From: a virus
Lineage: Duplodnaviria; Heunggongvirae; Uroviricota; Caudoviricetes
DNA length: 17,171 nucleotides
Strand: one strand, 5' to 3'
IMG/VR virus record: IMGVR_UViG_2778261277_000005
Both the position numbers and the translations under genes were made by a program. This document shows positions 1 through 17,171 of this stretch, one piece after another (within the stretch, counting starts at the first letter, position 1; the number at the start of each line of letters is the position of its first letter). Below the pieces are notes generated by a model. That model was not told the origin of the DNA, ran no database searches, and was given only the letters and a program-made list of their open reading frames with translations.

Positions 1-416
1 CTCCCGGTCAGTTCACGGATCAACACCGTGAGCAGCTCTGGCGATGGATTTTCCAGCGTCATGTTACCGTGACGGAATTCCACCTTGCAGGAACTGGCAC
101 TGACTCTGGTCTGAGTGGAAGTGGATAAAGACGGCGCAATGGCCGCCACAGGTTCTTTCTGCTCATCCGGCGTTATTTCTACAGGTAATAATTCAACGCC
201 AGTGTCAGAAGAGGTCGTTACCGGAAGACGCCGCGAAACACGCCCTTCGTTCTGCCAGAGCCTGAGCCATTTGAAAATAACATTATCATTGACGCCATTT
301 TCACGTGCAATCTGTGCAACACAAGCTCCAGGTTGTGATGCCAGTTCCACCATACGAAGTTTGAATTCATTCGAATAGTTTTTACGAGGTTCTTTTCGCC
401 AGTCCTGTAATTCCAT
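1..416 (-). CDS. Insertion-sequence OrfA/TnpA-like helix-turn-helix protein (IS66- or IS3-type), N-terminal ~138 codons; ORF continues beyond the window start
   Basis: Reverse-complement translation from the ATG at 416..414 is stop-free to position 1: MELQDWRKEPRKNYSNEFKLRMVELASQPGACVAQIARENGVNDNVIFKWLRLWQNEG... The 'NYSxEFK...ARxxGV...WxxxxQxG' pattern is the classic transposase OrfA HTH signature. Not in the ORF track because it has no stop inside the window. Opposite in orientation to the phage late operon. Confidence 0.55.
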   Translation of the reverse strand, partial: MELQDWRKEPRKNYSNEFKLRMVELASQPGACVAQIARENGVNDNVIFKWLRLWQNEGRVSRRLPVTTSSDTGVELLPVEITPDEQKEPVAAIAPSLSTSTQTRVSASSCKVEFRHGNMTLENPSPELLTVLIRELTG

Positions 417-501
417 ACTTAGATGTCCGTCTATATCAGATGGGCGTCTAAGTTACCAATTCTCGTCTGATGGCTACATACGGCGGTCAGTTTACGCTTA
501 C
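1..501 (-). mobile_element. Partial insertion sequence (one terminus plus start of orfA); candidate terminus near 495-501
   Basis: Minus-strand sequence reading inward from ~501 starts 5'-GTAAGCGTAAACTGACC..., consistent with my recollection that IS66-family inverted repeats begin GTAAGCG. The orfA ATG lies ~85 nt inside this end. Terminase homology begins only downstream of ~540. The boundary is uncertain (476-570 possible). Confidence 0.4.
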
Positions 502-573
502 GATAAGGCCCGCGAGCATTCTAAAAAGCGCCTCGACAGAACGTTCAGAAGCAGTGCGGCGGTAAAGAAAAGA

Positions 574-2286
574 ATGAGTCCACGTCGTAACGACAATAAT
601 GTCCATGATAAGACGTTCAGGGATGGCTCGTTCCTTAAAATTGGTTGGCCCTCGGTCAACATTATGTCGTCGTCGGATTACCGGTTTGTCGCCTTAACCG
701 ATTACGACCGTTTTCCGGAGAATATCGACAGCGAGGGTGATGGTTTCTCCCTGGCCTCAAAACGTACCACCACATTTATGTCCGCCGGGATGACTCTGGT
801 GGAGAGCTCGCCGGGACGTGACATCTGCGACAGCAAATGGCGACGTAAGTCGCCTCATGAAGCGCCACCGACGACTGGTATTCTTTCCCTTTACAATCGT
901 GGTGACCGCCGCCGCTGGTACTGGCCATGTCCGCACTGCGGTGAATATTTTCAGCCAGCTATGGATGCCATGACCGGCTACCGTAATGAACCGGATCCCT
1001 TTAAAGCCAGTGAGGCGGCGTATCTACTTTGCCCGCACTGCAGCGGCATTATCACTGCGGAGAAAAAGCGTGAGCTCAATAGTGCAGGAGTCTGGTTACG
1101 TGAAGGTCAGGTCATTGATCGTAACGGCAACGTTTCCGGTGAACCGCGCCGCTCCCGTATCGCCAGTTTCTGGATGGAAGGGCCAGTTGCTGCGTATCAG
1201 ACCTGGGCGCAACTGGTTTACAAATTACTGACTGCAGAACAGGAGTATGAAGCGACAGGAAGCGAAGAAACACTCAGGGCGGTTATCAACACCGACTGGG
1301 GATTACCTTATCTTCCTCGTGCCAGCATGGAGCAACGAAAAAGTGAACTGCTTGAGCAGCGGGCAGAGCCAGTTCCTTCCCGCAGTGTTCCGGATGGCGT
1401 TAATTTCCTTGTGGCGACAGTGGATGTGCAGGCGGGACGTCATCGCCGTTTTGTGGTTCAGGTAACGGGCTATGGCAGCCGTGGCGAACGCTGGATTATT
1501 GATCGTTACAACATCACGCAGTCATTGCGCAGTGACTGCGACGGGGAGAGCCAGCGAATTGATCCGGCCAGCTATCCGGAAGACTGGGATGTCCTGCTGA
1601 CGGATGTTTTTCATAAAAGCTGGCCGCTGGCCTCCGATCCTTCTCAACAAATGCGACTGATGGCAATGGCGGTGGATTCCGGCGGTGAAGACGGGGTCAC
1701 TGATAATGCCTATAAATTCTGGCGTCGTTGCCGTCGTGATGGCCTTGGTAAACGTATTTACCTGTTTAAGGGCGACAGCATCCGGCGCGCAAAACTGATC
1801 AGCCGTACATTCCCTGATAACACCGGACGAACGGGCCGCCGGGCGCAGGCCGCAGGTGATGTGCCGCTCTGGCTTCTTCAGACGGATGCCCTGAAAGACC
1901 GGGTGAATAACGCGTTATGGCGTGACTCGCCAGGTCCAGGCTATGTGCATTTCCCTGACTGGCTGGGGAGCTGGTTTTACGACGAACTGACGTATGAAGA
2001 GCGGAGCAGTGACGGGAAATGGAGTAAGCCGGGTCGCGGTGCCAACGAAGCTTTTGACCTGATGGTGTATGCCGAGGCGCTGGTCATTCTGCATGGATAC
2101 GAAAAGATCCGCTGGCCGGATGCACCGGAGTGGGCGAGTCGGGAAACCTGGCTGGAGTGTGTCCCGGACAGTACCGAACCGTCACCCTCACCGGAGCCGG
2201 TATCCACGCCTGTTAAAAAACAAAAACGGAAGAAAACAGTAACTGACGATGTTAACCCCTGGCTGACTTCCGGAGGATGGTTATGA
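574..2286 (+). CDS. Terminase large subunit, GpA (lambda A) family, 5'-truncated: lacks the N-terminal ATPase/Walker A region
   Basis: The 570-aa ORF aligns to roughly residues 140-641 of lambda gpA by recollection (e.g. WYWPCPHCGEYF vs lambda VACPHCGEEQY; FLVATVDVQAGRHRRFVV...WIIDR vs lambda YLTAGIDSQLDRYEMRVW...WLIDR). Four-Cys motif CPHCG...CPHCSG present. The same frame is open upstream through ~502 into the IS junction, so 574 is only the first ATG. Stop overlaps the next gene start (ATGA). Confidence 0.8.
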   Translation: MSPRRNDNNVHDKTFRDGSFLKIGWPSVNIMSSSDYRFVALTDYDRFPENIDSEGDGFSLASKRTTTFMSAGMTLVESSPGRDICDSKWRRKSPHEAPPTTGILSLYNRGDRRRWYWPCPHCGEYFQPAMDAMTGYRNEPDPFKASEAAYLLCPHCSGIITAEKKRELNSAGVWLREGQVIDRNGNVSGEPRRSRIASFWMEGPVAAYQTWAQLVYKLLTAEQEYEATGSEETLRAVINTDWGLPYLPRASMEQRKSELLEQRAEPVPSRSVPDGVNFLVATVDVQAGRHRRFVVQVTGYGSRGERWIIDRYNITQSLRSDCDGESQRIDPASYPEDWDVLLTDVFHKSWPLASDPSQQMRLMAMAVDSGGEDGVTDNAYKFWRRCRRDGLGKRIYLFKGDSIRRAKLISRTFPDNTGRTGRRAQAAGDVPLWLLQTDALKDRVNNALWRDSPGPGYVHFPDWLGSWFYDELTYEERSSDGKWSKPGRGANEAFDLMVYAEALVILHGYEKIRWPDAPEWASRETWLECVPDSTEPSPSPEPVSTPVKKQKRKKTVTDDVNPWLTSGGWL

Positions 2287-2495
2287 ATCAGAATGATATT
2301 GAAGCCATGATTCAGCGTTATACGGAAGCTGAAATGGCGGTGCTGGACGGAAAATCCGTCACTTTTAATGGTCAGCAGATGACCATGGAAAACTTATCTG
2401 AGATCCGGCAGGGACGGCAGGAGTGGGAGCGCCGCCTTGCGGCTCTGATTACACGACGACGGGGGCATCCCGGGTACCGGCTGGCGAGGTTCTGA
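2283..2495 (+). CDS. W: Head completion / head-tail joining protein, gpW family
   Basis: 70 aa; ATG at 2283 overlaps the terminase stop (ATGA), with GGAGG ~6 nt upstream. C-terminal '...TRRRGHPGY' resembles the lambda W C-terminus ('...QRRRGPAGFYV'). Position between terminase and portal is as in lambda. Confidence 0.75.
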   Translation: MNQNDIEAMIQRYTEAEMAVLDGKSVTFNGQQMTMENLSEIRQGRQEWERRLAALITRRRGHPGYRLARF

Positions 2496-4003
2496 TGGCA
2501 ATTCTTGATGATGTGATTGGCGTTTTTTCACCAGGATGGAAAGCGGCAAGGCTGCGTTCCCGTGCGGTGATTCAGGCTTATGAGGCCGTAAAAACGACGC
2601 GGACACACAAAGCCCGACGGGAGAACCGAACTGCCGACCAGTTAAGCCAGTACGGGGCCGTGTCGTTACGTGAGCAGGCCCGTTACCTTGATAACAACCA
2701 CGATCTGGTCATTGGTGTATTTGACAAGCTGGAAGAACGGGTGGTGGGGAAAAACGGGATTATTGTCGAGCCACATCCGGTATTACGCAATGGGGCCATT
2801 GCCCGTGATCTGGCAGCGGAGATACGCACCCGATGGAGTGAATGGTCTGTCAGTCCGGAAGTCACCGGGCAGTTTACCCGTCCGATGCTGGAACGTCTGA
2901 TGCTGCGTACCTGGCTGCGCGATGGTGAGGTGTTTGCCCAGATGGTTTCCGGGCGCATAAACAGCTTGACGCCTTCTGCCGGTGTTCATTTCTGGCTGGA
3001 GGCGCTCGAGCCGGACTTTATTCCCATGACCAGTGATGAGAGCAACAGGCTGAATCAGGGCGTGTTTGTTGATGACTGGGGGCGTCCCGAAAAATATCTG
3101 GTGTATAAAAGCCGTCCCGTATCCGGGCGGCAGATGGAAACCAAAGAAGTGGATGCAGAGCGAATGCTGCATCTTAAATTTGTTCGCCGTCTGCACCAGA
3201 TGCGCGGGACGTCTTTGTTGTCCGGTGTGCTGATCCGCCTCAGTGCTCTGAAAGAGTATGAAGATTCTGAGCTGACTGCAGCAAGGATCGCCGCTGCTCT
3301 GGGGATGTACATCCGGAAAGGCGACGGACAGAGCTATGAAACGGATGGTAATGACAGCAAGGAGAATGAACGCGAGCTTACCATTCAGCCAGGCATTATT
3401 TACGACGATCTGAAACCCGGCGAAGAAATCGGAATGGTGAAGTCGGATCGCCCCAATCCTAACCTTGAAACTTTTCGTAATGGTCAGTTGCGTGCCGTGG
3501 CTGCGGGCAGTCGTCTGAGTTTTTCCAGTACAGCGCGCAACTATAACGGCACTTACAGCGCCCAGCGTCAGGAGCTGGTTGAATCTACTGATGGCTACCT
3601 GATCCTGCAGGACTGGTTTATTGGTGCCGTCACCCGCCCGATGTACCGTGCCTGGCTGAAACAGGCTGTGGCATCCGGTGTTATCAGGCTACCCCGCGAT
3701 CTGGACCGATCTTCACTGTATACCGCGGTGTATTCCGGACCGGTGATGCCGTGGATTGACCCTGTTAAGGAGGCTGAGGCCTGGAAAATTCAGATTCGTG
3801 GTGGAGCGGCGACAGAATCAGACTGGGTACGTGCAGGTGGTCGTAATCCGGATGATGTCAAACGTCGGCGCAAGGCCGAAATTGATGAAAACCGCAAGCT
3901 GGATCTGGTATTTGATACCGATCCGGCCAGTGATAAAGGAGGCAGCAGTGCCGCAACGAAACGACAGGAGCCGCAGCACACCGACGACCAGTCCGAAGAA
4001 TAA
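2495..4003 (+). CDS. Portal protein (lambda B-type family)
   Basis: 502 aa from the ATG overlapping the W stop (TGATG); the ORF-track start at 2423 is an in-frame upstream extension that overlaps W. Size and position are typical for a portal; sequence is diverged from lambda B. Confidence 0.8.
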   Translation: MAILDDVIGVFSPGWKAARLRSRAVIQAYEAVKTTRTHKARRENRTADQLSQYGAVSLREQARYLDNNHDLVIGVFDKLEERVVGKNGIIVEPHPVLRNGAIARDLAAEIRTRWSEWSVSPEVTGQFTRPMLERLMLRTWLRDGEVFAQMVSGRINSLTPSAGVHFWLEALEPDFIPMTSDESNRLNQGVFVDDWGRPEKYLVYKSRPVSGRQMETKEVDAERMLHLKFVRRLHQMRGTSLLSGVLIRLSALKEYEDSELTAARIAAALGMYIRKGDGQSYETDGNDSKENERELTIQPGIIYDDLKPGEEIGMVKSDRPNPNLETFRNGQLRAVAAGSRLSFSSTARNYNGTYSAQRQELVESTDGYLILQDWFIGAVTRPMYRAWLKQAVASGVIRLPRDLDRSSLYTAVYSGPVMPWIDPVKEAEAWKIQIRGGAATESDWVRAGGRNPDDVKRRRKAEIDENRKLDLVFDTDPASDKGGSSAATKRQEPQHTDDQSEE

Positions 4004-4016
4004 TTCCTGGTTCAGG

Positions 4017-5975
4017 ATGCAGGCAGGTCACCAGAGTGACGCGGATATTTATATTTATGACGAGATTGGTTTCTGGGGTGTTACAGCGAAGCAGTTTATC
4101 AGTGATCTGAATGCACTGGGCGATATCACCCACATTAATCTCCATATTAATTCACCGGGTGGCGATGTCTTTGAAGGCATCGCCATTTTTAATGCACTGA
4201 AAACACATGGTGCGTCCATTACCGTTTATGTCGACGGTGTGGCGGCGTCAATGGCGTCGGTCATTGCGATGGTGGGAAACCCGGTCATTATGCCGGAAAA
4301 CTCCTTCATGATGATTCATAAACCATTTGGCTTTACGGGCGGTGATGCGGAGGACATGCGCACCTATGCCGACCTGCTCGATAAAGTTGAGGCGGTTCTG
4401 TTACCCGCTTATGCACAGAAAACCGGGAAAACCACCGATGAAATTGCTGCCATGCTGGCGGATGAGACCTGGATGTCCGGTGCCGAATGTCTGGCACAGG
4501 GATTTGCTGATCAGGTGACACCAGCCGTTAAGGCAATGGCATGTATTCAGTCAAAACGTACAGAGGAATTTAAAAAGATGCCGGAATCCATTCGAAACAT
4601 GATTACTCCGCCACGCAACAGTGCTCCACGCGTACAGGATGATGAACCTGCAGCCTCCCGGACGCCAGTGCAGGCAGCAGCACCCGTGGTGGATGAAAAC
4701 AGTATCCGTGCGCAGGTACTGGCAGAGCAAAAAGCGCGTGTAAACGGTATTAATGATCTGTTTGCCATGTTTGGCGGGCGTTATCAGATGCTGCAGGCCC
4801 AGTGTCTTGCCGATCCTGAATGTTCGCTGGAGCAGGCCCGTGAAAAGCTGTTGAACGAGATGGGGCGCGAGTCCACGCCATCCAATAAAAATACCCCGGC
4901 TCATATTTATGCCGGTAACGGTAATTTTGTGGGGGACGGGATCCGCCAGGCGCTGATGGCGCGTGCCGGATTTGAAAAAACCGAACGTGATAATGTCTAC
5001 AACGGGATGACCCTGCGTGAATATGCCCGTATGTCACTAACTGAACGGGGTATTGGGGTTTCCGGTTATAACCCGATGCAGATGGTCGGTGCGGCGTTCA
5101 CACACAGTACGTCTGACTTCGGTAATATTCTGCTGGATGTTGCGAACAAAGCCATTCTGCAGGGCTGGGAAGATGCCCCTGAAACCTATGAACAGTGGAC
5201 GCGGAAAGGTCAGTTGTCTGATTTTAAAATTGCCCATCGTGTGGGTATGGGGGGCTTCAGTGCTCTGCGTCAGGTGCGTGAAGGGGCGGAATATAAATAC
5301 GTCACCACCGGAGATAAACAGGCCACTATTGCACTGGCGACCTATGGCGAGCTGTTCAGTTTCACCCGTCAGGCCATTATCAATGATGATCTGAATATGC
5401 TGACCGATGTCCCGATGAAACTGGGCCGTGCGGCGAAATCCACTATTGCCGATCTGGTTTATGCCATTCTGACGTCTAACCCGAAAATCTCCACAGATAA
5501 TGTAAGTCTGTTCGATAAAGCGAAACATGCAAACGTACTGGAGAGCGCTGCAATGGACGTGGCATCGCTGGATAAAGCCCGCCAGTTGATGCGCGTTCAG
5601 AAAGAGGGGGAGCGTCATCTGAATATTCGTCCTGCGTTCGTACTGGTACCGACGGCGATGGAGTCTGTTGCTAACCAGGTCATTCGCTCCTCAAGTGTCA
5701 AGGGGGCTGACATTAACGCCGGTATTATTAACCCGGTGAAAGATTTTGCGACCGTTATTGCAGAGCCTCGTCTTGATGATAACAGCCAGACCACCTTCTA
5801 CCTGGCTGCGTCAAAAGGCTCCGATACGATTGAAGTGGCTTATCTCAACGGTGTGGATACGCCATATATTGATCAGATGGAGGGCTTCAGTGTGGATGGC
5901 GTGACAACGAAAGTGCGTATTGACGCCGGTGTCGCGCCAGTTGATCACCGCGGTCTGGTGAAATGTACGGCGTAA
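4017..5975 (+). CDS. Fused prohead protease (ClpP/S14-like) - linker/scaffold - major capsid protein (HK97 fold)
   Basis: The N-terminal ~200 aa carry a ClpP-like serine protease signature (HINSPGGDVFEGIAIF..., GVAASMASVI..., MMIHKP); a Pro/Ala/Gln-rich linker follows; the C-terminal ~380 aa resemble major capsid proteins. Start chosen at the first ATG after the portal stop (MQAGHQSDADIYIYDE...); the ORF-track start at 3756 overlaps the portal. Confidence 0.8.
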   Translation: MQAGHQSDADIYIYDEIGFWGVTAKQFISDLNALGDITHINLHINSPGGDVFEGIAIFNALKTHGASITVYVDGVAASMASVIAMVGNPVIMPENSFMMIHKPFGFTGGDAEDMRTYADLLDKVEAVLLPAYAQKTGKTTDEIAAMLADETWMSGAECLAQGFADQVTPAVKAMACIQSKRTEEFKKMPESIRNMITPPRNSAPRVQDDEPAASRTPVQAAAPVVDENSIRAQVLAEQKARVNGINDLFAMFGGRYQMLQAQCLADPECSLEQAREKLLNEMGRESTPSNKNTPAHIYAGNGNFVGDGIRQALMARAGFEKTERDNVYNGMTLREYARMSLTERGIGVSGYNPMQMVGAAFTHSTSDFGNILLDVANKAILQGWEDAPETYEQWTRKGQLSDFKIAHRVGMGGFSALRQVREGAEYKYVTTGDKQATIALATYGELFSFTRQAIINDDLNMLTDVPMKLGRAAKSTIADLVYAILTSNPKISTDNVSLFDKAKHANVLESAAMDVASLDKARQLMRVQKEGERHLNIRPAFVLVPTAMESVANQVIRSSSVKGADINAGIINPVKDFATVIAEPRLDDNSQTTFYLAASKGSDTIEVAYLNGVDTPYIDQMEGFSVDGVTTKVRIDAGVAPVDHRGLVKCTA

Positions 5976-5997
5976 ACGTCGCAGACAACAACTCTGA

Positions 5998-6020
5998 TGG
6001 CCCGTAAGGGCTTTTTTTGT
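5998..6020 (+). terminator. Putative intrinsic terminator after the capsid gene
   Basis: GCCC-GTAA-GGGC short hairpin immediately followed by TTTTTTT, about 25 nt after the capsid stop codon. Confidence 0.45.
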
Positions 6021-6061
6021 ACCTGAAATCAGCCCCTGAACGGGGCTGTGCGGAGACAGTT

Positions 6062-6385
6062 ATGGCAAAGAATTTTGTAGAAGAAGGAAAAACGGTGGCG
6101 ATTGTTGCCAGTGCAGCCATCAGCAGCGGAGATCTGGTGCAGGTGGGCGATGTTTTTGCGGTGGCGCTGACCGATATTCCACAGGGTGAAACAGGCGACG
6201 GCATGACCGAAGGTGTGTTTATGCTGCCTAAGCTGAAAACGGATGACATGAAAACGGGTAAGAAGGTTTATCTGAAGTCCGGAAAAGTTCAGCTGACTAA
6301 CAGCGGCTCTGATCCGCTGGTCGGGGTTGTCTGGGCAGATGCCGGAACCAGTGCAGAAGAAGTGCCGGTAAAACTCAATGTCTGA
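6062..6385 (+). CDS. DUF2190-family small head protein (putative capsid decoration/cement protein)
   Basis: 107 aa from MAKNFVEEGKTV...VGVVWADAG...VPVKLNV, preceded by GGAGA; it resembles the ~110-aa DUF2190 proteins that commonly follow major capsid genes. The ORF-track start at 6017 is an upstream extension. Confidence 0.55.
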   Translation: MAKNFVEEGKTVAIVASAAISSGDLVQVGDVFAVALTDIPQGETGDGMTEGVFMLPKLKTDDMKTGKKVYLKSGKVQLTNSGSDPLVGVVWADAGTSAEEVPVKLNV

Positions 6386-6653
6386 TCCCTTTTCCCGGCT
6401 GGCAGCGCGTATGGATGCTATCACGGTTAGAAAGATGGGAAAGACAGCCTCGATTAATGATGTCGATATGACTGTGATCCCGGGAGAAACACTGGCAGAG
6501 CTGAATGCTCTGTCCGGACCTGCGGTCTCTCTGGTGGTGTTTTCTTCGGGATACCGCCCACGGCGCGGGGATCGCGTTGTTTATGACGGACAACAATGGA
6601 CGGTCACACGGCATGAACGTTTTAACGGTAAGCCAATGATCTTTATTGAGTAA
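6378..6653 (+). CDS. Head-tail connector protein, lambda FII-like
   Basis: 91 aa. 'RRGDRVVYDGQQWTVTR' matches the lambda FII 'RRGDTLTIGEENFWVDR' region by recollection, and the N-terminus 'FSRLAARMDAI' resembles FII 'FDAAIARADETI'. Start overlaps the previous stop. Confidence 0.65.
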   Translation: MSDPFSRLAARMDAITVRKMGKTASINDVDMTVIPGETLAELNALSGPAVSLVVFSSGYRPRRGDRVVYDGQQWTVTRHERFNGKPMIFIE

Positions 6654-6664
6654 AGAGGTGTGGG

Positions 6665-7243
6665 ATGAAGGGGCTTGAGAATGCCATCCGTAATCTGAAC
6701 AGCCTTGATACCCGTATGGTGCCACAGGCCAGCGCATGGGCGATAAACCGTGTGGCACAGAAAGCGGTCTCGGTCGCCACCCGGCAGGTTGCCGGGAATA
6801 CCGTTGCGGGAGATAACCAGGTGAAAGGGATCCCCCTGAAACTGGTACGTCAGCGTGTCCGGGTGTTTAAAGCCAGTCCGTCAGGAAAAATGACGGCCAG
6901 GATCCGCGTTAACCGGGGCAATCTGCCCGCTATTAAGCTGGGGACAGCCCGGGTCAGACTGGCCCGGCGTGGTGGAAAACTGCAGTACCGTGGCAGTGTG
7001 CTGAAGGTGGGTAAATATCTTTTCCGGGATGCGTTTATTCAGCAACTGGCGAATGGTCGCTGGCATGTGATGCGGCGTATTGATGGCAAAAATCGTTACC
7101 CCATTGATGTGGTGAAAGTCCCGCTGTCCGGACCGCTGACACAGGCATTTGAAGATGCCCGCGACCGCATTATTGCTGCGGAAATGCCGAAACAGCTGGG
7201 GTATGCACTGAAACAACAACTGAGGTTATGGCTGACCCGATGA
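6665..7243 (+). CDS. Z: Minor tail protein Z (tail completion)
   Basis: 192 aa, the same length as lambda Z; strongly lambda-Z-like (AINRVA..., IRVNRGNLPAIKLG, QQLANGRWHVMRR, GKNRYPIDVVKVP, LGYALKQQLR). GAGGTG RBS upstream. Confidence 0.85.
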   Translation: MKGLENAIRNLNSLDTRMVPQASAWAINRVAQKAVSVATRQVAGNTVAGDNQVKGIPLKLVRQRVRVFKASPSGKMTARIRVNRGNLPAIKLGTARVRLARRGGKLQYRGSVLKVGKYLFRDAFIQQLANGRWHVMRRIDGKNRYPIDVVKVPLSGPLTQAFEDARDRIIAAEMPKQLGYALKQQLRLWLTR

Positions 7244-7641
7244 ACCGACATACACAAATCCGCCAGGCCGTACTGGCACGCCTTCGGGAACAGTGTGGAG
7301 ACAGCGCCACGTTTTTTGACGGGCTTCCGGCATTTATTGATGCGCAGGAACTGCCTGCCGTGGCGGTGTGGCTGAGTGATGCTCAGTACACCGGAAAAAT
7401 GACGGATGAAGATGACTGGCAGGCTGTTCTGCATATTGCTGTCTTCATCCGGGCACAGGCACCGGATTCAGAGCTGGATATGTGGATGGAGAGCACCATT
7501 TTCCCGGCCCTGAATGATATACCGGCACTTTCCGGACTCATCGACACCCTGATCCCTCTCGGTTTTAACTATCAACGTGATAATGAGATGGCCACCTGGG
7601 CGATGGCGGAAATCACGTACCAGATCACGTACACGAATTAA
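7240..7641 (+). CDS. U: Tail terminator protein U
   Basis: ATG at 7240 overlaps the Z stop (ATGA). MNRHTQIRQAVLARL...ATFFDG...PAVAVWL...PDSELDMWMES...IPALS...ITYTN parallels lambda U almost residue for residue by recollection. The ORF-track start at 7228 is a short upstream extension. Confidence 0.9.
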   Translation: MNRHTQIRQAVLARLREQCGDSATFFDGLPAFIDAQELPAVAVWLSDAQYTGKMTDEDDWQAVLHIAVFIRAQAPDSELDMWMESTIFPALNDIPALSGLIDTLIPLGFNYQRDNEMATWAMAEITYQITYTN

Positions 7642-7652
7642 AGGAGGTGGCA

Positions 7653-8396
7653 ATGACCACACCAAATCCACTGGCAAAAACGAAAGGTGCGGGAACGACG
7701 TTCTGGATGTACACCGGCAAGGGCGATGCGTTTGCGAACCCTTTATCGGACACTGACTGGCTGCGTCTTGCGATGGTGAAGGATCTGCAACCTGGCGAAA
7801 TGACCGCTGATGCAGAAGATGACACTTATCTCGATGATGAAGATGCAGACTGGAAAACGACAACCCAGGGGCAGAAATCCGTTGGTGATACTTCGGCGAC
7901 GCTGGCCTGGCGTCCGGGTGACAGCGGGCAGAAAAAACTGGTTCAGTTGTTCGACTCCGGTGAAGTCTGCGCGTTTCGTATCAAATATCCCAACGGCACT
8001 GTTGATGTTTTCCGTGGCTGGCTGAGCTCACTGGGTAAAACCATTGCCTCAAAAGACGTGATGACCCGCACAGTGAAAATCAGCGGTGTGGGGCGTCCGT
8101 ATCTGGCAGAGGAAGGCACTGAAACAGTGAGCGTTACCGGGCTGACGGTGGCACCGGCATCTGCCAGTGTAAAAGTGGGAGCAACCACCACGCTGACCTT
8201 TACAGTAAAACCTGACGGAGCCAGTGACAAAGCGATCAGTGTGCATTCGACAGATCCACAGACTGCCACGGTGACCCTGAACGGGCTTGTGGCCACGGTG
8301 AAAGGCGTGAAGCAGGGCAGTGTCAGCATTGTGGGCATGACTTCTGACGGCGATTTTGTGGCAGTGGCTGCGGTGGCTGTCAGCGCCGCAGGTTAA
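7653..8396 (+). CDS. V: Major tail tube protein V with C-terminal Ig-like (Big_2-type) domain
   Basis: AGGAGG RBS, then ATG (MTTPNPLAKTKGAGTT...). Matches lambda V (KGAGTT, YANPLSD, YLDDEDADW, QGQKS.GDTS, NGTVDVFRGW), and the C-terminal ~90 aa are Thr/Val/Ser-rich like the lambda V Ig-like domain. The ORF-track start at 7647 is a GTG two codons upstream. Confidence 0.9.
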   Translation: MTTPNPLAKTKGAGTTFWMYTGKGDAFANPLSDTDWLRLAMVKDLQPGEMTADAEDDTYLDDEDADWKTTTQGQKSVGDTSATLAWRPGDSGQKKLVQLFDSGEVCAFRIKYPNGTVDVFRGWLSSLGKTIASKDVMTRTVKISGVGRPYLAEEGTETVSVTGLTVAPASASVKVGATTTLTFTVKPDGASDKAISVHSTDPQTATVTLNGLVATVKGVKQGSVSIVGMTSDGDFVAVAAVAVSAAG

Positions 8397-8414
8397 CAGG
8401 ACGATACTCATCAT

Positions 8415-8440
8415 TTGCCCCGGTTATCCGGGGCTTTTTT
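8415..8440 (+). terminator. Intrinsic terminator between V and G
   Basis: GCCCCGG-TTAT-CCGGGGC (7-bp GC stem) followed by TTTTTT, ~20 nt after the V stop. The ORF-track TTG start for G (8415) lies inside this hairpin and is rejected. Confidence 0.6.
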
Positions 8441-8456
8441 GCAGGTGGAGAACATG

Positions 8457-8843
8457 ATGTTTCTGAAACAGGGCACGTTTAATTATGAAAAGCAGTCCGT
8501 GGTGCTCAGTGAGCTGTCCGGGCTGCAGAGAATTGAATATCTGGCGTTTGTTCAGCAGCGAACGGCAAAGTTTGATGCCGAAGAGGGAGAACTGCCGGAG
8601 GCTGAACGACAGATTGCTTTTCTGCGGATGGGGATGGATATCAATGCCTGGCTGGTTTCCCGCTCACTGTGGAATGCGGAACAGTCTCAGGATGTTGAGA
8701 CGCTTTGCGCATCCGTTATTACAACATGGTCGTATGATGCCCTGGGAGCGGGGGCGGAGATGGTTCTGTCGCTGAGCGGTATGGGAGTCATTGAGAATGC
8801 CGGGGATTTGGAGCATGAGGTGCTGACGCCGGAAAAGTCCTGA
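8457..8843 (+). CDS. G: Tail assembly chaperone G
   Basis: Starts MFLKQGTF... (lambda G starts MFLKTESF...), with GGAG upstream; 128 aa; located immediately upstream of the tape measure gene. Confidence 0.85.
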   Translation: MFLKQGTFNYEKQSVVLSELSGLQRIEYLAFVQQRTAKFDAEEGELPEAERQIAFLRMGMDINAWLVSRSLWNAEQSQDVETLCASVITTWSYDALGAGAEMVLSLSGMGVIENAGDLEHEVLTPEKS

Positions 8844-9181
8844 CGCGGGAAATGCAGTTTGTCATGCGGCTTGCCCGGGAGTTCCGGCGGGCAGACTGGC
8901 GGCGGATGCTGTCGGAAATGTCGGCCACTGAGCTTGGTGAGTGGGGCGATTATTTCCGGATGCAGAGCTTCAGTGATGTGTGGATGGATGCGCAGTTTGC
9001 CTCGCTGAAGGCATTGATCGTGAGAATGGTGTCCGGTAGCAGTGATGCTGCGGTGGCTGATTTCAGCCTTTTACCGGAAGAGAACGGGATACCGGAGCGA
9101 ACGGACGAAGAACTGATGCATCTTGGGGAAGGTATTTCCGGAGGTGTGCGTTATGGACCAGATAGCCAACCTGGTCATTGA
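8457..9181 (+). CDS. T: Tail assembly chaperone G-T fusion, produced by programmed -1 ribosomal frameshift near the 3' end of G
   Basis: The 8852..9181 ORF is in the -1 frame relative to G, and that frame is stop-free across the G stop codon. This mirrors the conserved G/GT arrangement of lambda-like tail modules. Candidate slip region is CCGGAAAAG, ~8829-8837. Confidence 0.7.
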
Positions 9182-12100
9182 TTTGGGGATTGATGCGGCA
9201 GAGTTTAAAAATGAAATTCCCCGTATCAAAAACCTTCTGAATGGTGCAGCCAGCGATGCAGAACGGTCTTCTGCCCGTATGCAGCGTTTTATGGAGCGTC
9301 AGACTCAGGCCGCCCGGCAGACAACGCAGGCAGCTTCTTCGGCTGCAACAGCCGCATCCGTCCATGCGCAGACGGTGGAGAAGAACGCACAGGCTCATGA
9401 ACGCATGGCCCGCGAGGTGGAGAAAACCCGCCAGCGCATGGAGGCACTGAGCCAGAAAATGCGCGAGGAACAGGCGCAGGCCATGGCTCTGGCGGAGGCT
9501 CAGGATAAAGCGGCTGCTGCGTTTTATCGTCAGATTGACAGTGTGAAACAGGCCAGTGCGGGGCTGCAGGAATTACAGCGTATTCAGCAGCAGATCCGAC
9601 AGGCCAGAAACAGTGGCGGGATTGGTCAGCAGGATTATCTGGCGCTGATTTCTGAGGTTACTGCGAAAACTCGTGTTCTTACACAGGCTGAGGAAGAGGC
9701 TACCCGACAGAAAGTGGCGTTTATCCGTCAGCTTAAAGAGCAGGCAACCCGCCAGAATCTTTCTTCTTCTGAGTTGCTTCGTGCTAAGGCTGCCCAGCTG
9801 GGGGTAAGCAGTGCTGCAGAAGTGTATATCCGCAAAATGGAGCAGGCAGGAAAAGCCACGCATTCGCTGGGTCTGAAAAGTGCAGCGGCCCGCCAGGAGA
9901 TAGGCGTTCTGATAGGTGAACTGGCTCGCGGCAATTTAGGTGCGCTGAGGGGATCCGGGATAACGCTGGCTAACCGTGCCGGATGGATAGACACACTGAT
10001 GTCACCGAAAGGCATGATGCTGGGCGGGGTTATTGGCGGTATTGCCGCGGCCGTCTATGGTCTGGGTAAAGCCTGGTATGATGGTCAGAAGGAGGGGGAA
10101 GAATTTAACCGCCAGTTGTCGCTGACGGGGCATTATGCCGGAGTCACTGCCGGGCAGCTGTGGACGCTCAGTCGTGCTATTTCCGGGAATGGTATCACGC
10201 AACATGCTGCAGCCGGTGCGCTGGCTCAGGTGGTGGGGAGTGGTGCATTTCGTGGAAACGATATCGGTATGGTGGCGAGAGCTGCCGCACAGATGGAGCG
10301 ATCGGTTGGCCAGTCGGTCAGCGATACCATAAATCAGTTTAAGCGGCTGAAGGATGATCCTGTAAATGCCGCGAAGGCTCTGGACAATGAGCTGCATTTT
10401 CTTACTGCCACTCAGCTTGAGCAGATACGCGTCCTTGGGGAACAGGGGCGGTCCAGTGATGCGGCACGGATAGCCATGTCTGCACTGGCAGAGGAAACCG
10501 GTCGGCGTACTGCGGATATTGATAATAACCTCAATGCGCTGGGCAGTACGCTGAAGTATCTGTCTGATTTATGGAGTCGTTTCTGGGATGCGGCCATGAA
10601 TATTGGTCGTGAAGACTCGCTGGATGAACAGATTTCCGCTTTACAGGAGAAAGTGTCGCGGGCGAAAAGACTCCCCTGGACGGCATCATCTTCTCAGGTT
10701 GAGTACGATCAGCAGCGTCTTAACGAGCTTCAGGAGAAAAAACGCCAGAAGGATTTGCAGGATGCAAAAGAGCAGGCAGAGCAGAATTATCAGGAGCAAC
10801 AGAAACGCCGTAATGCTGAAAATGCTGCACTGAACCGGATGAATGAAACGGAAGCAGCACGACATCAGCGTGAAATTGCGCGTATTAATTCCATGCAGTA
10901 CGCCGATCAGGCTGTCAGGGATGCGGCGATACAACGTGAAAATGAACGTTACGAGAAAGCCCTGGCATCCGGTAAGAAAAAAACACGCGAACCCCGTAAT
11001 GATGAGGCCACCCGGTTATTGCTGCAGTACAGTCAGCAACAGGCACAGGTGGAAGGACAGATTGCTGCTGTCAGACAGTCAGCAGGCATTGCCACGGAAA
11101 GGATGACAGAAGCGCATAAACAGCTTCTGGCTCTGCAGCAGCGCATCAGCGACCTGGACGGGAAAAAACTGACGGCAGATGAAAAGAGTGTGCTGGCCCG
11201 TAAAGATGAACTGATTCAGGCACTGACGCTGCTGGATGTAAAACAGCAGGAGCTTCAGAAACAGACGGCACTCAACGAGCTGAAGAAAAAAACAATTCAG
11301 CTGACCAGTCAACTGGCTGAAGAAGAGCGCGCTCAGCGTCAGCAACATGACCTGGATATCGCCACGGTGGGTATGGGTGATCAGCAGCGGCAGCGATATC
11401 AGGTACAACTGAGTCTTCGCCAGAAATACCAGCAACAGCTGGAGCAGTTGAGGCGGGATAGTGAGCAGAAAGGAACATATAACACGGATGACTACAGAAA
11501 GGCCGAGCAGGCGCTGACGGAGAGCCTGAACCGACAACTGAATGAGAATCGCCGTTACTGGCAACAGCTTGAAGTTGTGCAGGGTAACTGGAAAAACGGA
11601 GTCCTGCGTGCATTTCAGAATTTTACCGTGGATGCAGATAATACGGCAGGAACAGCAGAACAGGTGTTCTCGTCAGCCTTCAGCAACATGGGAAATGGCC
11701 TGGCAACTTTTGTCACTACCGGCAAACTCAATTTCAAATCCTTCACCTCTTCTGTGCTGTCAGACATGGCGAAAATCCTGGCGCAGGCAACCATGATGAA
11801 ATCGATAAAAGGGATTGGCAGTGTACTGGGATTTGATCTCAGCAGCCTTTCCCTGAATGCCAATGGGGGGATTTATCAGTCTGCTGATTTGAGTCGTTAC
11901 AGTGGCACGGTGGTTAACCGTCCGACGTTTTTTGCTTTTGCAAAAGGCGCGGGTGTGATGGGGGAAGCGGGACCTGAAGCCATTCTGCCACTGCGTCGTG
12001 GTGCTGACGGTAAGCTGGGGGTTGTGGCGGATATTGGTGGTTCAGGTATGGCGATGTTTGCCCCGCAGTACAACATCGAGATCAATAACGATGGCACGAA

Positions 12101-12218
12101 CGGGCAGATAGGTCCGGCTGCCCTGAAGGTGGTTTATGACCTCGGGAAAAAAGCGGCAGCGGACTTTATGCAACAGCAGGCCCGTGATGGTGGTCGGTTA
12201 AGTGGAGCATATCGGTAA
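9153..12218 (+). CDS. H: Tail tape measure protein H
   Basis: ~1021 aa from the ATG preceded by GGAGG (MDQIANLVIDLGID...); the ORF-track start at 9123 is an upstream extension. Long Q/A/E/R-rich coiled-coil central region; directly downstream of G/T. Stop overlaps the M start (TAATG). Confidence 0.9.
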   Translation: MDQIANLVIDLGIDAAEFKNEIPRIKNLLNGAASDAERSSARMQRFMERQTQAARQTTQAASSAATAASVHAQTVEKNAQAHERMAREVEKTRQRMEALSQKMREEQAQAMALAEAQDKAAAAFYRQIDSVKQASAGLQELQRIQQQIRQARNSGGIGQQDYLALISEVTAKTRVLTQAEEEATRQKVAFIRQLKEQATRQNLSSSELLRAKAAQLGVSSAAEVYIRKMEQAGKATHSLGLKSAAARQEIGVLIGELARGNLGALRGSGITLANRAGWIDTLMSPKGMMLGGVIGGIAAAVYGLGKAWYDGQKEGEEFNRQLSLTGHYAGVTAGQLWTLSRAISGNGITQHAAAGALAQVVGSGAFRGNDIGMVARAAAQMERSVGQSVSDTINQFKRLKDDPVNAAKALDNELHFLTATQLEQIRVLGEQGRSSDAARIAMSALAEETGRRTADIDNNLNALGSTLKYLSDLWSRFWDAAMNIGREDSLDEQISALQEKVSRAKRLPWTASSSQVEYDQQRLNELQEKKRQKDLQDAKEQAEQNYQEQQKRRNAENAALNRMNETEAARHQREIARINSMQYADQAVRDAAIQRENERYEKALASGKKKTREPRNDEATRLLLQYSQQQAQVEGQIAAVRQSAGIATERMTEAHKQLLALQQRISDLDGKKLTADEKSVLARKDELIQALTLLDVKQQELQKQTALNELKKKTIQLTSQLAEEERAQRQQHDLDIATVGMGDQQRQRYQVQLSLRQKYQQQLEQLRRDSEQKGTYNTDDYRKAEQALTESLNRQLNENRRYWQQLEVVQGNWKNGVLRAFQNFTVDADNTAGTAEQVFSSAFSNMGNGLATFVTTGKLNFKSFTSSVLSDMAKILAQATMMKSIKGIGSVLGFDLSSLSLNANGGIYQSADLSRYSGTVVNRPTFFAFAKGAGVMGEAGPEAILPLRRGADGKLGVVADIGGSGMAMFAPQYNIEINNDGTNGQIGPAALKVVYDLGKKAAADFMQQQARDGGRLSGAYR

Positions 12219-12547
12219 TGGAGACGTTTCACTGGAAAGTGCGCCCGGATATGAATGTGGTATCAGAGCCGAAAGTGGTGACAGTGAAGCTGGGCGATGG
12301 TTATGAACAGCGTCGTGCGGCGGGACTGAATAACCAGTTGTCGATTTACAGCGTGACGATACGTGTTCGTAAATGTGAACACCCATCTTTAAAAGCCTTT
12401 CTGGAACGGCACGGTGGCGTCCGCGCATTTCAGTGGACGCCACCTTATGACTGGAAGCCGATCAGGGTGGTTTGTCGTAAATGGTCGGCAAGCGTGGGGG
12501 CGCTGTGGGTAACCATAACGGCAGATTTTGAACAGGTCGTGGCATAG
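12218..12547 (+). CDS. M: Minor tail protein M (tail tip)
   Basis: 109 aa, the same length as lambda M; METFHWKV...GDGYEQR...YSVT...HGG...WTPPYDW...FEQVV parallels lambda M by recollection. Confidence 0.9.
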   Translation: METFHWKVRPDMNVVSEPKVVTVKLGDGYEQRRAAGLNNQLSIYSVTIRVRKCEHPSLKAFLERHGGVRAFQWTPPYDWKPIRVVCRKWSASVGALWVTITADFEQVVA

Positions 12548-12556
12548 GAGGCCCTG

Positions 12557-13255
12557 ATGCAGGATATTTCACAGGAAACACATCATGAGACGACACGCCT
12601 CACTCAGTCAGCCCAGGTGGTGCTCTGGGAAATCGATCTGACAGTGGTCGGTGGTGAACGTTATTTTTTCTGTAATGAGCAGAACGATAAAGGTGAGCCG
12701 GTCACCTGGCAGGGGCGACAGTATCAGGCGTATCCCATTCAGGGGACGGGATTTGAACTGAACGGCAAAGGCAGTGCTGCCCGTCCGACACTGACGGTTT
12801 CTAACCTGCACGGCATGGTCACCGGGATGGCGGAAGACCTGCAGAGTCTGGTCGGAGGAACGGTGGTCCGGCGTAAGGTTTACGCCCGTTTTCTGGATGC
12901 GGTGAACTTCGTCAACGGAAACAGTGACGCCGATCCGGAGCAGGAGGTGATCAGCCGCTGGCGCATCGAGCAGTGCAGTGAACTGAGCGCGGTGAGTGCC
13001 TCTTTTGTACTGTCCACGCCGACGGAAACGGACGGTGCCGTTTTTCCGGGACGTATCATGCTGGCCAACACCTGCACCTGGACCTATCGCGGTGATGAGT
13101 GCGGTTATCACGGTCCGGCGGTCGCGGATGAATATGATCAGCCGACGTCCGATATCACGAAGGATAAATGCAGCAAATGCCTGAGCGGCTGTAAGTTTCG
13201 CAATAACGTCGGCAACTTTGGCGGCTTCCTTTCCATTAACAAACTTTCGCAGTGA
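12557..13255 (+). CDS. L: Minor tail protein L (tail tip, C-terminal Cys cluster)
   Basis: 232 aa, the same length as lambda L; near-identical blocks (VVLWEIDLT, GGERYFFCNEQN, VTWQGRQYQ, GMVTGMAEDLQSLVGGTVVRRKVYARFLDAVNFVNGNS, KDKCSKCLSGCKFRNNVGNFGGFLSINKLSQ). AGGAGG RBS. Confidence 0.92.
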   Translation: MQDISQETHHETTRLTQSAQVVLWEIDLTVVGGERYFFCNEQNDKGEPVTWQGRQYQAYPIQGTGFELNGKGSAARPTLTVSNLHGMVTGMAEDLQSLVGGTVVRRKVYARFLDAVNFVNGNSDADPEQEVISRWRIEQCSELSAVSASFVLSTPTETDGAVFPGRIMLANTCTWTYRGDECGYHGPAVADEYDQPTSDITKDKCSKCLSGCKFRNNVGNFGGFLSINKLSQ

Positions 13256-13260
13256 ATCCC

Positions 13261-14004
13261 ATGACAGAGACAGAATCAGCGATTCTGGCGCACGCCCGGC
13301 GATGTGCGCCAGCGGAGTCGTGCGGCGTCGTGGTGAGAACACCGGAGGGGGAAAGATATTTTCCCTGCGTGAATATATCCGGTGAGCCGGAGGAGTATTT
13401 CCGGATGTCGCCGGAGGACTGGCTGAGTGCAGAAATGCAGGGAGAGATTGTGGCGCTGGTCCACAGCCACCCCGGTGGTCTGCCCTGGCTGAGTGAGGCC
13501 GACCGGCGGCTGCAGGTGCAGAGTGATTTGCCGTGGTGGCTGGTCTGCCGGGGGGCGATTCATAAATTCCGCTGTGTGCCGCATCTCACCGGGCGGCGCT
13601 TTGAGCACGGGGTGACGGACTGTTACACGCTGTTCCGGGACGCTTACCATCTGGCGGGAATTGAGATGCCGGATTTTCATCGCGGGGATGACTGGTGGCG
13701 TCACGGTCAGAATCTCTATCTGGATAATCTGGAGGCCACAGGGCTGTATCAGGTGCCGTTGTCATCAGCACAACCGGGCGATGTGCTGCTGTGCTGCTTT
13801 GGTTCATCGGTGCCGAATCATGCCGCCATTTACTGTGGTGACGGCGAGCTGCTGCACCATATTCCTGAACAACTGAGCAAACGAGAGAGGTATACCGACA
13901 AATGGCAGCGACGCACACACTCCCTCTGGCGTCACCGGGCATGGCGCGCATCTGCCTTTACGGGGATTTACAACGATTTGGCCGCCGCATCGATCTGCGT
14001 GTGA
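13261..14004 (+). CDS. K: Tail tip assembly protein K (JAB/MPN metalloprotease-like plus NlpC/P60-like domains)
   Basis: ATG just after the L stop (MTETESAIL...). JAMM-like motif 'VHSHPGG...SEAD'; downstream Cys/His-containing region (DCYTLF..., NHAAIYCG) typical of the NlpC/P60 domain of lambda K. The 3' end overlaps I in another frame, as in lambda. Confidence 0.85.
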   Translation: MTETESAILAHARRCAPAESCGVVVRTPEGERYFPCVNISGEPEEYFRMSPEDWLSAEMQGEIVALVHSHPGGLPWLSEADRRLQVQSDLPWWLVCRGAIHKFRCVPHLTGRRFEHGVTDCYTLFRDAYHLAGIEMPDFHRGDDWWRHGQNLYLDNLEATGLYQVPLSSAQPGDVLLCCFGSSVPNHAAIYCGDGELLHHIPEQLSKRERYTDKWQRRTHSLWRHRAWRASAFTGIYNDLAAASICV

Positions 14005-14426
14005 AAACGGGGGCCGAAGCCATCCGGGCGCTGGCCATGCAGATCCCGGCGTTTCGTCAGAAGCTGAGCGACGGCTGGTATCAGGTACGCATTGCCGGGC
14101 GTGATACAGGTGAAACGGAATTATCAGCCCGTCTTAATGAACCGCTGGCAAATGGTGCTGTGATCCATATCGTGCCGCGTCTGGCGGGAGCCAAAAGTGG
14201 CGGTGTGTTTCAGGCTGTGCTGGGGGCGGCTGTTATGGCGGTTGCTATATGGATGCCGGGGGTAGGAATTATGGCGAGTAATCTGCTGTTTTCTCTCGGT
14301 GCCAGTATGACGCTTGGCGGTGTTGCACAGATGCTGGCCCCTAAACCCAAAACCCCCCGCACACAGACAACGGATAACGGCAAACAGAACACCTATTTTT
14401 CTTCACTGGATAACATGGTTGCCTAG
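13902..14426 (+). CDS. I: Tail tip assembly protein I, ending at an in-frame TAG; the C-terminal 38 codons continue in frame to 14543
   Basis: MAATHTLPLASPGMARICLYGDLQRFGRRIDLRVKTGAEAIRALA... is essentially the lambda I N-terminus. The ORF ends ...YFSSLDNMVA-TAG, and the same frame continues GNVLPVLYGEMRVGSRVVSQEISTADEGDGGQVVVIGR-TGA, which matches the lambda I C-terminus, where Q (CAG) occupies the TAG position. Confidence 0.85.
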   Translation: MAATHTLPLASPGMARICLYGDLQRFGRRIDLRVKTGAEAIRALAMQIPAFRQKLSDGWYQVRIAGRDTGETELSARLNEPLANGAVIHIVPRLAGAKSGGVFQAVLGAAVMAVAIWMPGVGIMASNLLFSLGASMTLGGVAQMLAPKPKTPRTQTTDNGKQNTYFSSLDNMVA

Positions 14427-14561
14427 GGCAATGTTCTGCCTGTTCTGTACGGTGAAATGCGCGTGGGGTCACGCGTGGTTTCTCAGGAGATCAGCACGGC
14501 AGACGAAGGGGATGGTGGTCAGGTTGTGGTGATTGGTCGCTGATGCAAAATGTTTTATGTG

Positions 14562-14585
14562 AAACCGCCTGCGGGCGGTTTTGTC
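14562..14585 (+). terminator. Hairpin plus T-rich tract between I and J (possible attenuator or RNA structure)
   Basis: AACCGCC-TGCG-GGCGGTT stem-loop followed by TTGTCGTTT, ~20 nt upstream of the J RBS. Confidence 0.35.
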
Positions 14586-14603
14586 GTTTATGGAGCGTGA
14601 GGA

Positions 14604-17171
14604 ATGGGTAAAGGAAGCAGTAAGGGGCATACCCCGCGCGAAGCGAAGGACAACCTGAAGTCCACGCAGTTGCTGAGTGTGATTGATGCCATCAGTGAAG
14701 GGCCGATTGAAGGTCCGGTGGATGGATTAAAAAGCGTGCTGCTGAACAGTACGCCGGTGCTGGACAGTGATGGGAATACCAACATCGCCGGTGTCACGGT
14801 GGTGTTCCGGGCTGGTGAGCAGGAGCAGACTCCGCCGGAGGGATTTGAATCCTCCGGCTCCGAGACGGTGTTGGGTACGGAAGTGAAATACGACACGCCG
14901 ATCACCCGCGCCATCACGTCGGCAAACATCGACCGACTGCGCTTTACCTTCGGTGTGCAGGCACTGGTGGAAACCACCTCAAAGGGGGACCGGAATCCGT
15001 CGGAAGTTCGCCTGCTGGTTCAGATACAGCGTAATGGTGGCTGGGTGACGGAAAAAGACATCACCATTAAGGGCAAAACCACCTCGCAGTATCTGGCCTC
15101 GGTGGTGGTGGATAACCTGCCGCCGCGCCCGTTTAATATCCGGATGCGCAGAATGACGCCGGACAGCACCACAGACCAGCTGCAGAACAAAACGCTCTGG
15201 TCGTCATACACCGAAATCATCGATGTGAAACAGTGCTACCCGAACACGGCACTGGTCGGCGTGCAGGTGGACTCGGAACAGTTCGGCAGCCAGCAGGTGA
15301 GCCGTAATTATCATCTTCGCGGGCGCATTCTGCAGGTGCCGTCGAACTATAACCCGCAGACGCGGCAATACAGCGGTATCTGGGACGGAACGTTTAAGCC
15401 AGCATACAGCAACAACATGGCCTGGTGTCTGTGGGATATGCTGACCCATCCGCGCTACGGCATGGGGAAGCGTCTCGGTGCGGCGGATGTGGACAAATGG
15501 GCGCTGTATGTCATCGGCCAGAATTGCGACCAGTCGGTGCCGGATGGCTTTGGTGGCACGGAGCCGCGCATCACCTGTAATGCCTGGCTGATCACACAGC
15601 GCAAGGCGTGGGATGTTCTCAGTGATTTCTGCTCGGCGATGCGCTGTATGCCGGTATGGAACGGGCAGACGCTGACGTTCGTGCAGGACCGACCGTCGGA
15701 TAAGGTGTGGACCTATAACCGCAGTAATGTGGTGATGCCGGATGATGGCGCGCCGTTCCGCTACAGCTTCAGTGCCCTGAAGGACCGTCATAATGCCGTT
15801 GAGGTGAACTGGATTGACCCGGATAACGGCTGGGAGACGGCGACAGAGCTTGTGGAGGACACGCAGGCCATTGCCCGTTACGGTCGTAACGTCACGAAGA
15901 TGGATGCCTTTGGCTGTACCAGCCGGGGGCAGGCACACCGCGCCGGGCTGTGGCTGATTAAAACGGAACTGCTGGAAACGCAGACCGTGGACTTCAGCGT
16001 GGGTGCCGAAGGGCTTCGCCATGTACCAGGTGATGTCATTGAAATCTGTGATGATGACTATGCGGGGATCAGCACCGGCGGGCGCGTGCTGGCGGTGAAC
16101 AGCCAGACCCGGACGCTGACGCTCGACCGTGAAATCACGCTGCCATCCTCCGGTACCACGCTGATAAGCCTGGTTGACGGAAGTGGCAATCCGGTCAGCG
16201 TGGAGGTCCAGTCCGTCACCGACGGCGTGAAGGTAAAAGTGAGCCGTGTTCCTGACGGCGTTGCCGGATACAGCGTGTGGGGGCTGAAGCTGCCGACGCT
16301 GCGCCAGCGCCTGTTCCGCTGCGTGAGTATCCGTGAGAACGACGACGGCACGTATGCCATCACCGCCGTGCAGCATGTACCGGAAAAAGAAGCCATCGTG
16401 GATAACGGGGCGCACTTTGACGGCGACCAGAGCGGCACGGTGAATGGTGTCACGCCGCCAGCAGTGCAGCACCTGACTGCCGAAGTCACCGCAGACAGCG
16501 GGGAATATCAGGTGCTGGCGCGCTGGGACACGCCGAAGGTGGTGAAGGGGGTGAGCTTTATGCTTCGCCTGACCGTAACAGCGGACGACGGCAGTGAGCG
16601 GCTGGTCAGCACGGCCCGGACGACAGAAACCACATACCGCTTCAGGCAGCTGGCGCTGGGGCGTTACACGCTGACGGTCCGGGCGGTAAATGCGTGGGGA
16701 CAGCAGGGCGATCCGGCATCGGTATCGTTCCGGATTGCCGCACCGGCAGCGCCGTCGCAGATTGAGCTGACACCCGGGTATTTTCAGATAACCGCCACGC
16801 CGCATCTTGCGGTTTATGATCCGACGGTACAGTTTGAGTTCTGGTTCTCGGAAAAGCGGATTGCGGATATCAGGCAGGTTGAAACCAGCGCGCGTTATCT
16901 TGGTACGGCGCTGTACTGGATAGCCGCCAGTATCAATATCAAACCGGGCCATGATTATTATTTTTACGTTCGCAGTGTGAATACCGTTGGCAAATCGGCA
17001 TTCGTGGAGGCTGTTGGTCGGCCGAGTGATGATGCTTCCGGCTATCTGGATTTTTTCAAAGGCGAGATAGGGAAAAGCCATCTGGCTCAGGAGTTGTGGA
17101 CGCAGATTGATAACGGTCAGCTTGCGCCTGACCTGGCTGAAATCAGGACGTCCATTACGGATGTCAGCAAT
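14604..17171 (+). CDS. J: Tail tip / host specificity protein J, N-terminal ~856 codons; 3' end beyond the window
   Basis: ATG at ~14604 preceded by GGAGCGTGAGG; the frame is open to the last base of the window (exactly 856 codons), which explains its absence from the ORF track (no stop in window). [54 protein letters not shown]... matches the lambda J N-terminus essentially residue for residue by recollection. Confidence 0.92.

Follow-up and report, generated by a model that had tools for sequence, protein, structure and literature searches.

In a lambda-like (Qin-type) prophage of E. coli the terminase large-subunit gene was most probably split by a simple insertion of the IS66-family element ISEc23, with the loss of packaging as its consequence, and we put the probability of this reading at roughly 87%. 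In the proposed course of events ISEc23, encoding tnpA, tnpB and the DDE transposase tnpC, would have transposed into the terminase at codon 106-108 with its genes antisense to the phage late operon, and would have parted the Walker A P-loop (residues 72-79) from the remainder of the ATPase and the nuclease domain. The far end of the IS should then abut codons 1-108 of the gene, the 8-bp sequence GATAAGGC being duplicated. Neither fragment would be able to serve as a packaging motor and the prophage DNA would be neither cut nor packaged.

The window, by which we mean the whole 17,171 nucleotide stretch of DNA that was analysed, is the entire draft contig NLFZ01000054.1 of the E. coli assembly GCA_002225765.1. 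Its left end lies inside the IS and its right end inside the tail-tip gene gpJ, and it stops at base 1 because the short-read assembly broke in a repeated element and not for any biological reason. The left edge falls 10 nt short of the tnpA stop, at the tnpA/tnpB overlap, a position that may point to other IS66-family copies in the genome that have tnpB-tnpC in common with it but lack this tnpA segment.

The ISEc23 end and its boundary with the terminase gene

Positions 1..501 (minus strand) correspond to the tnpA-side, or left, end of ISEc23. This IS66-family element has 2532 bp in its complete form, and 501 bp of it are present here. Within it the minus strand of 1..416 carries 138 of the 141 codons of tnpA, the IS66-family accessory HTH protein, with an ATG at 416..414 and a translation that begins MELQDWRKEPRKNYSNEFKLRMVELASQPGACVAQIARENGVNDNVIFKWL... 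and is cut off by the contig end at 138 residues. A first-pass annotation, made from the letters of the sequence, had proposed an IS OrfA-type HTH protein reading out of the window at this position and this was borne out, as the product matches the Pfam family HTH_Tnp_1 (E 4.9e-12) and its DNA is 99.8-100% identical to RefSeq genes labelled 'IS66-like element accessory protein TnpA'. tnpA is the sole IS66 gene inside the window, tnpB and tnpC being seen in full copies that are 99.8% identical over the shared segment.

The terminal inverted repeat (IRL) occupies 477..501 on the minus strand and reads GTAAGCGTAAACTGACCGCCGTATG inward from base 501, pairing with GTAAGCGTCAACGGAGCACCGTATT in full copies of the element. 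GTAAGCG terminal repeats are reportedly typical of the IS66 family, and another IS66 element compared here has the ends GTAAGCGTCC... The same annotation had pointed to an IS66-type GTAAGCG reading inward from ~501 and expected an inverted repeat at ~476-560; the motif is exact at 501..495 on the minus strand, similarity to ISEc23 ends at 501 and the repeat falls within the expected interval. Bases 502..573, which lie within the region it annotated, belong not to the IS but to the terminase coding sequence (codons 106-129). When 1..1300 was compared by megablast with 5426 complete E. coli genomes, the boundary between IS similarity and terminase similarity lay exactly at 501/502, with 1..501 aligning to IS copies and 502..1300 aligning at 99.9% to genes annotated as 'phage terminase large subunit'.

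The window's 1..501 matches the ISEc23 copies of PCN061 and LR881940 at 500 of 501 bases (99.8%) and those of strains E2863 and HS4 at 100% identity. We accordingly assign the element, at the level of sequence, to ISEc23 itself rather than to a relative, the name being taken from the PGAP annotation of the matching copies. Full ISEc23 measures 2532 bp in both PCN061 (NZ_CP006636.1; positions 5970-8501 of extracted locus L001) and isolate 2015-01-2097 (NZ_LR881940.1, here LR881940; positions 5970-8501 of extracted locus L002), where PGAP annotates tnpA, tnpB and an 'IS66-like element ISEc23 family transposase'. The proteins of the full copies match HTH_Tnp_1, TnpB_IS66 and the combination DDE_Tnp_IS66, zf-IS66 and LZ_Tnp_IS66 in Pfam. 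One end of the full element is GTAAGCGTCAACGGAGCACCGTATT and the other GTAAGCGTAAACTGACCGCCGTATG; both start GTAAGCG and they agree at about 19 of their first 25 positions. The two copies are flanked by 8-bp target duplications, ACATTATG in PCN061 and ATCCATCC in LR881940, at two independent sites.

Both reference copies resemble the window in their shared 501 bp (99.8% identical), in the terminal repeat GTAAGCGTAAACTGACC... and in tnpA, and, as in the window, both interrupt the packaging genes of a prophage of this type and point the same way, antisense to the late operon. They differ from it in position: the PCN061 element sits 157 bp deeper in the terminase gene (codon ~160), whereas that of LR881940 sits in the upstream DUF1441 gene. 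The insertions in the window, PCN061 and LR881940 are independent events. ISEc23 is a very common E. coli element, with ISEc23-like sequence found in 3244 of the 5426 complete genomes at a median of 3 and a maximum of 42 places per genome.

A terminase cut downstream of Walker A

Immediately beyond the IS the plus strand carries the 3' portion of a GpA-type terminase large-subunit gene (502..2286, codons 106-699) from which Walker A is gone and in which the nuclease domain is whole. By comparison with the intact copy of ATCC 25922, codon 106 of the 699-codon gene begins at base 502; the plus-strand reading from this base is DKAREHSKKRLDRTF... and the frame is already open upstream of 502. No in-frame start codon was found between the stop at 376-378 and position 574, where the ATG at residue 130 is the first in-frame start and opens a 570-aa ORF (574..2286). 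Because there is no in-frame start before 574, the longest possible product lacks Walker A.

The domain matches agree with this placement of the break. The fragment covers only profile positions 67-247 of 247 of Pfam GpA_ATPase, and the whole of GpA_nuclease (PF20454; positions 1-294 of 294, E 1.6e-86). In the intact homologue the Walker A motif GPARTGKT occupies residues 72-79 and aligns with KSARVGYS of lambda gpA (residues ~76-83), upstream of the break; it is absent from the window. That the terminase starts mid-protein had been recognised in the first-pass annotation and is correct (codon 106 of 699). The start had been placed at about lambda gpA residue 140, and this part needs revision as the break aligns with lambda residue ~109; the earlier figure is explained by the ATG at 574 (residue 130), which aligns with lambda ~136. 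The absence of Walker A, Nu1 and cos from the window was also correctly noted: GPARTGKT lies in the missing codons, and no small-subunit gene or cos is present, since the contig breaks off within the IS.

Comparison with an uninterrupted homologous prophage, which the annotation had proposed as a check, was possible in ATCC 25922, where an uninterrupted terminase gene of 699 codons follows a DUF1441 gene. Over 502..6300 the window differs from this prophage at 4 of 5799 bases (99.93% identity), the two agree in the head and tail genes that follow, and the terminase (WP_000507030.1, GpA family, 699 aa) shows a single amino acid difference, A334V, over residues 130-699. ATCC 25922 has codons 1-105, including Walker A, together with the upstream DUF1441 gene, whereas the window has neither. 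Lambda gpA (641 aa) shares the GpA_ATPase and GpA_nuclease layout of the window-type terminase and can be aligned with it over ~600 residues, but with only 24% identity, and in the window's prophage type a DUF1441 protein, not one annotated as Nu1, is the small-subunit partner. With the IS end at 501 and the gene cut downstream of Walker A, the proposal that an IS insertion splits the ATPase domain stands, and the terminase of the window, as read from its domain content, is a gene fragment and not a functional family member.

For cos cleavage and translocation a GpA-type terminase needs both Walker motifs (A and B) and its catalytic residues on the same polypeptide as the nuclease domain. Given this need for a single polypeptide, a split after residue 108 should abolish packaging. 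From the domain architecture the terminase is almost certainly a pseudogene and the prophage defective.

Continued expression of the 570-aa ORF from the ATG at 574, for example by read-out from the IS, with a nuclease-only or regulatory role for a gene remodelled rather than destroyed, seems to us very improbable. In its favour the nuclease domain is complete, the ORF is intact and it carries one private missense change only. This is set against the lack of any start codon in this frame from the stop at 376-378 as far as 574 and against a private nonsense mutation in tail gene I (described below) that fits decay. In addition a scan of 300..700 on both strands found no sigma-70-like promoter and no terminator, although the scan is crude and uninformative on IS read-out.

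The 5' half of the gene

Simple insertion of ISEc23 makes a definite prediction for the side of the element that lies outside the contig. The reference copies are flanked by 8-bp duplications, from which GATAAGGC at 502..509 (plus strand) is the predicted target sequence, repeated at the far end of the window copy; the far-side junction would then read ...GTGCAGATGACCGAAGATAAGGC joined directly to GTAAGCGTCAACGGAGC. In a model with this 8-bp duplication the 5' gene ends ...GAT AAG GC followed by G TAA, giving residues 1-108 (...TEDKA) and then a TAA supplied by the GTAAGCG of the IS. Within a collection of 15 billion proteins, 13 NCBI and Logan contigs encode exactly this 108-aa product. In the same collection the 570-aa 3' ORF occurs in the V334 form of the window on 2 contigs (NCBI) and in an A334 form on 9 more (Logan), for a total of 11 with the 3' product. 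The figures of 13 left-hand and 11 right-hand products are consistent with a small lineage in which the two halves of a simple insertion are both present. From the predicted reciprocal product we infer that the 5' part of the terminase lies directly beyond the IS in the genome from which the window came.

These products also bear on the possibility that the junction is the outcome of an IS-mediated rearrangement, either an adjacent deletion or a recombination or inversion between ISEc23 copies, which would place the 5' fragment, the small-subunit gene and cos elsewhere or have deleted them. The contig ends before the far side of the IS is reached, and ISEc23-like sequence at a median of 3 and up to 42 places per genome would offer substrates for recombination. 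We nevertheless judge a rearrangement unlikely, as the exact reciprocal product of an insertion with an 8-bp duplication is present on 13 contigs, close to the 11 with the 3' product, and the terminase side begins exactly at the terminal base of the IS, as a primary insertion would give.

It is harder still to credit that the join of IS and terminase is an assembly chimera and that the terminase is intact in the true genome. Short-read drafts can mis-join at repeats, and this is a 17 kb contig with repeats at both ends, but the terminase sequence takes over exactly after the final base of the IS inverted repeat, the truncated 570-aa ORF was called separately on 9 further Logan contigs and the complementary 108-aa product also exists.

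The two forms of the 3' ORF further order two events: as truncated ORFs with the ancestral A334 also exist, A334V evidently post-dates the IS insertion. None of the 5426 complete E. coli genomes contains the junction itself, the two records among them that cover at least 80% of 1..1300 both have the IS at other sites, and an exact search with the 40-bp IS/terminase junction gave no matches in species-representative genome contigs and viral contigs. With its predicted ORFs on about a dozen draft and Logan contigs, the junction between the IS and GATAAGGC could serve as a lineage marker.

The remaining prophage and other IS66 insertions

Downstream of the terminase the lambda-like late genes continue on the plus strand from 2283 to 14426, with Pfam-supported gene calls for 2283..12286 and collinearity with relatives. 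From 2283 the order is a 70-aa gene where lambda has W, portal, a ClpP-protease/capsid fusion, decoration protein, Z and U, and after U the major tail gene, G, T, tape measure, M, L, K and I. The interval 502..15975 is collinear with intact relatives at 99.97% identity and product lengths are equal for the genes called in both, with the exception of I. A look-up of the capsid-protease protein, which is too common to mark a lineage (528 index blocks), gave only intact relatives, and these served for comparison. The high identity and unchanged late-gene arrangement indicate a recent insertion event. At the right end the gpJ tail-tip gene (14487-17171, plus strand) continues past the contig end. 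We weighed and dismissed a 625-aa ORF on the minus strand (15204..17081) as a further gene: it runs antisense within gpJ, matches no Pfam family and is almost certainly spurious.

The exception is a lambda gpI-like tail assembly ORF (13902..14426, plus strand) shortened by an amber codon. At window position 14424 a private C-to-T change turns CAG into TAG and removes the last 39 codons of gene I, whereas all five close relatives have C at the equivalent position and read through to the equivalent of 14543. Scored against these five relatives the window has two private substitutions in total, the gene I amber and a C-to-T at 1187 that gives A334V in the truncated terminase. The amber, as predicted from the reading frame, is a second inactivating lesion of the prophage, and both substitutions are in keeping with a dead prophage under relaxed selection.

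That prophages decay and become domesticated through IS insertions in their genes is textbook knowledge. The phenomenon described here, a known element with a known consequence, is thus already known, and in PCN061 RefSeq already annotates split terminase pseudogenes of an equivalent kind. The finding identifies the window's prophage as defective, by a split terminase and an amber in a tail-assembly gene, and explains where the draft contig ends; it carries little weight beyond annotation and leaves current understanding unchallenged.

Window-type terminases are present in about 792 complete genomes. In 714 of these the 1351-bp stretch that comprises the DUF1441 gene and the 5' end of the terminase is uninterrupted, so that around a tenth are disrupted in some way. 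We saw four independent IS66-family insertions in the packaging region of ~1.5 kb, those of the window, PCN061, LR881940 and GCA_014106285.1, involving two different IS66-family elements and all antisense to the late operon, in a sampling that is anecdotal. The element in GCA_014106285.1 (2699 bp; positions 2629-5327 of extracted locus L007) is 64-76% identical to ISEc23 and lies ~360 bp upstream of the DUF1441 gene. The PCN061, LR881940 and GCA_014106285.1 insertions all have 8-bp duplications (3/3). The clustering may reflect a hotspot or a mere sampling effect. We hold it to be unlikely that the packaging region, taken to run from cos through the small-subunit gene into the 5' end of the terminase, is a preferred and orientation-biased IS66 target or a site at which such insertions are favoured by selection. 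Were selection at work, insertions here would lock the prophage in place and spare its lysis and cold-shock cargo genes.

A further disruption was seen in a prophage of the same type on the draft contig AARHXD020000050.1 of GCA_011959325.2, where the terminase is cut at about codon 327. The 824 bp before the cut (positions 1-824 of extracted locus L013) match neither the intact prophage nor ISEc23, and by this comparison the break represents a disruption different from the ISEc23 insertion.
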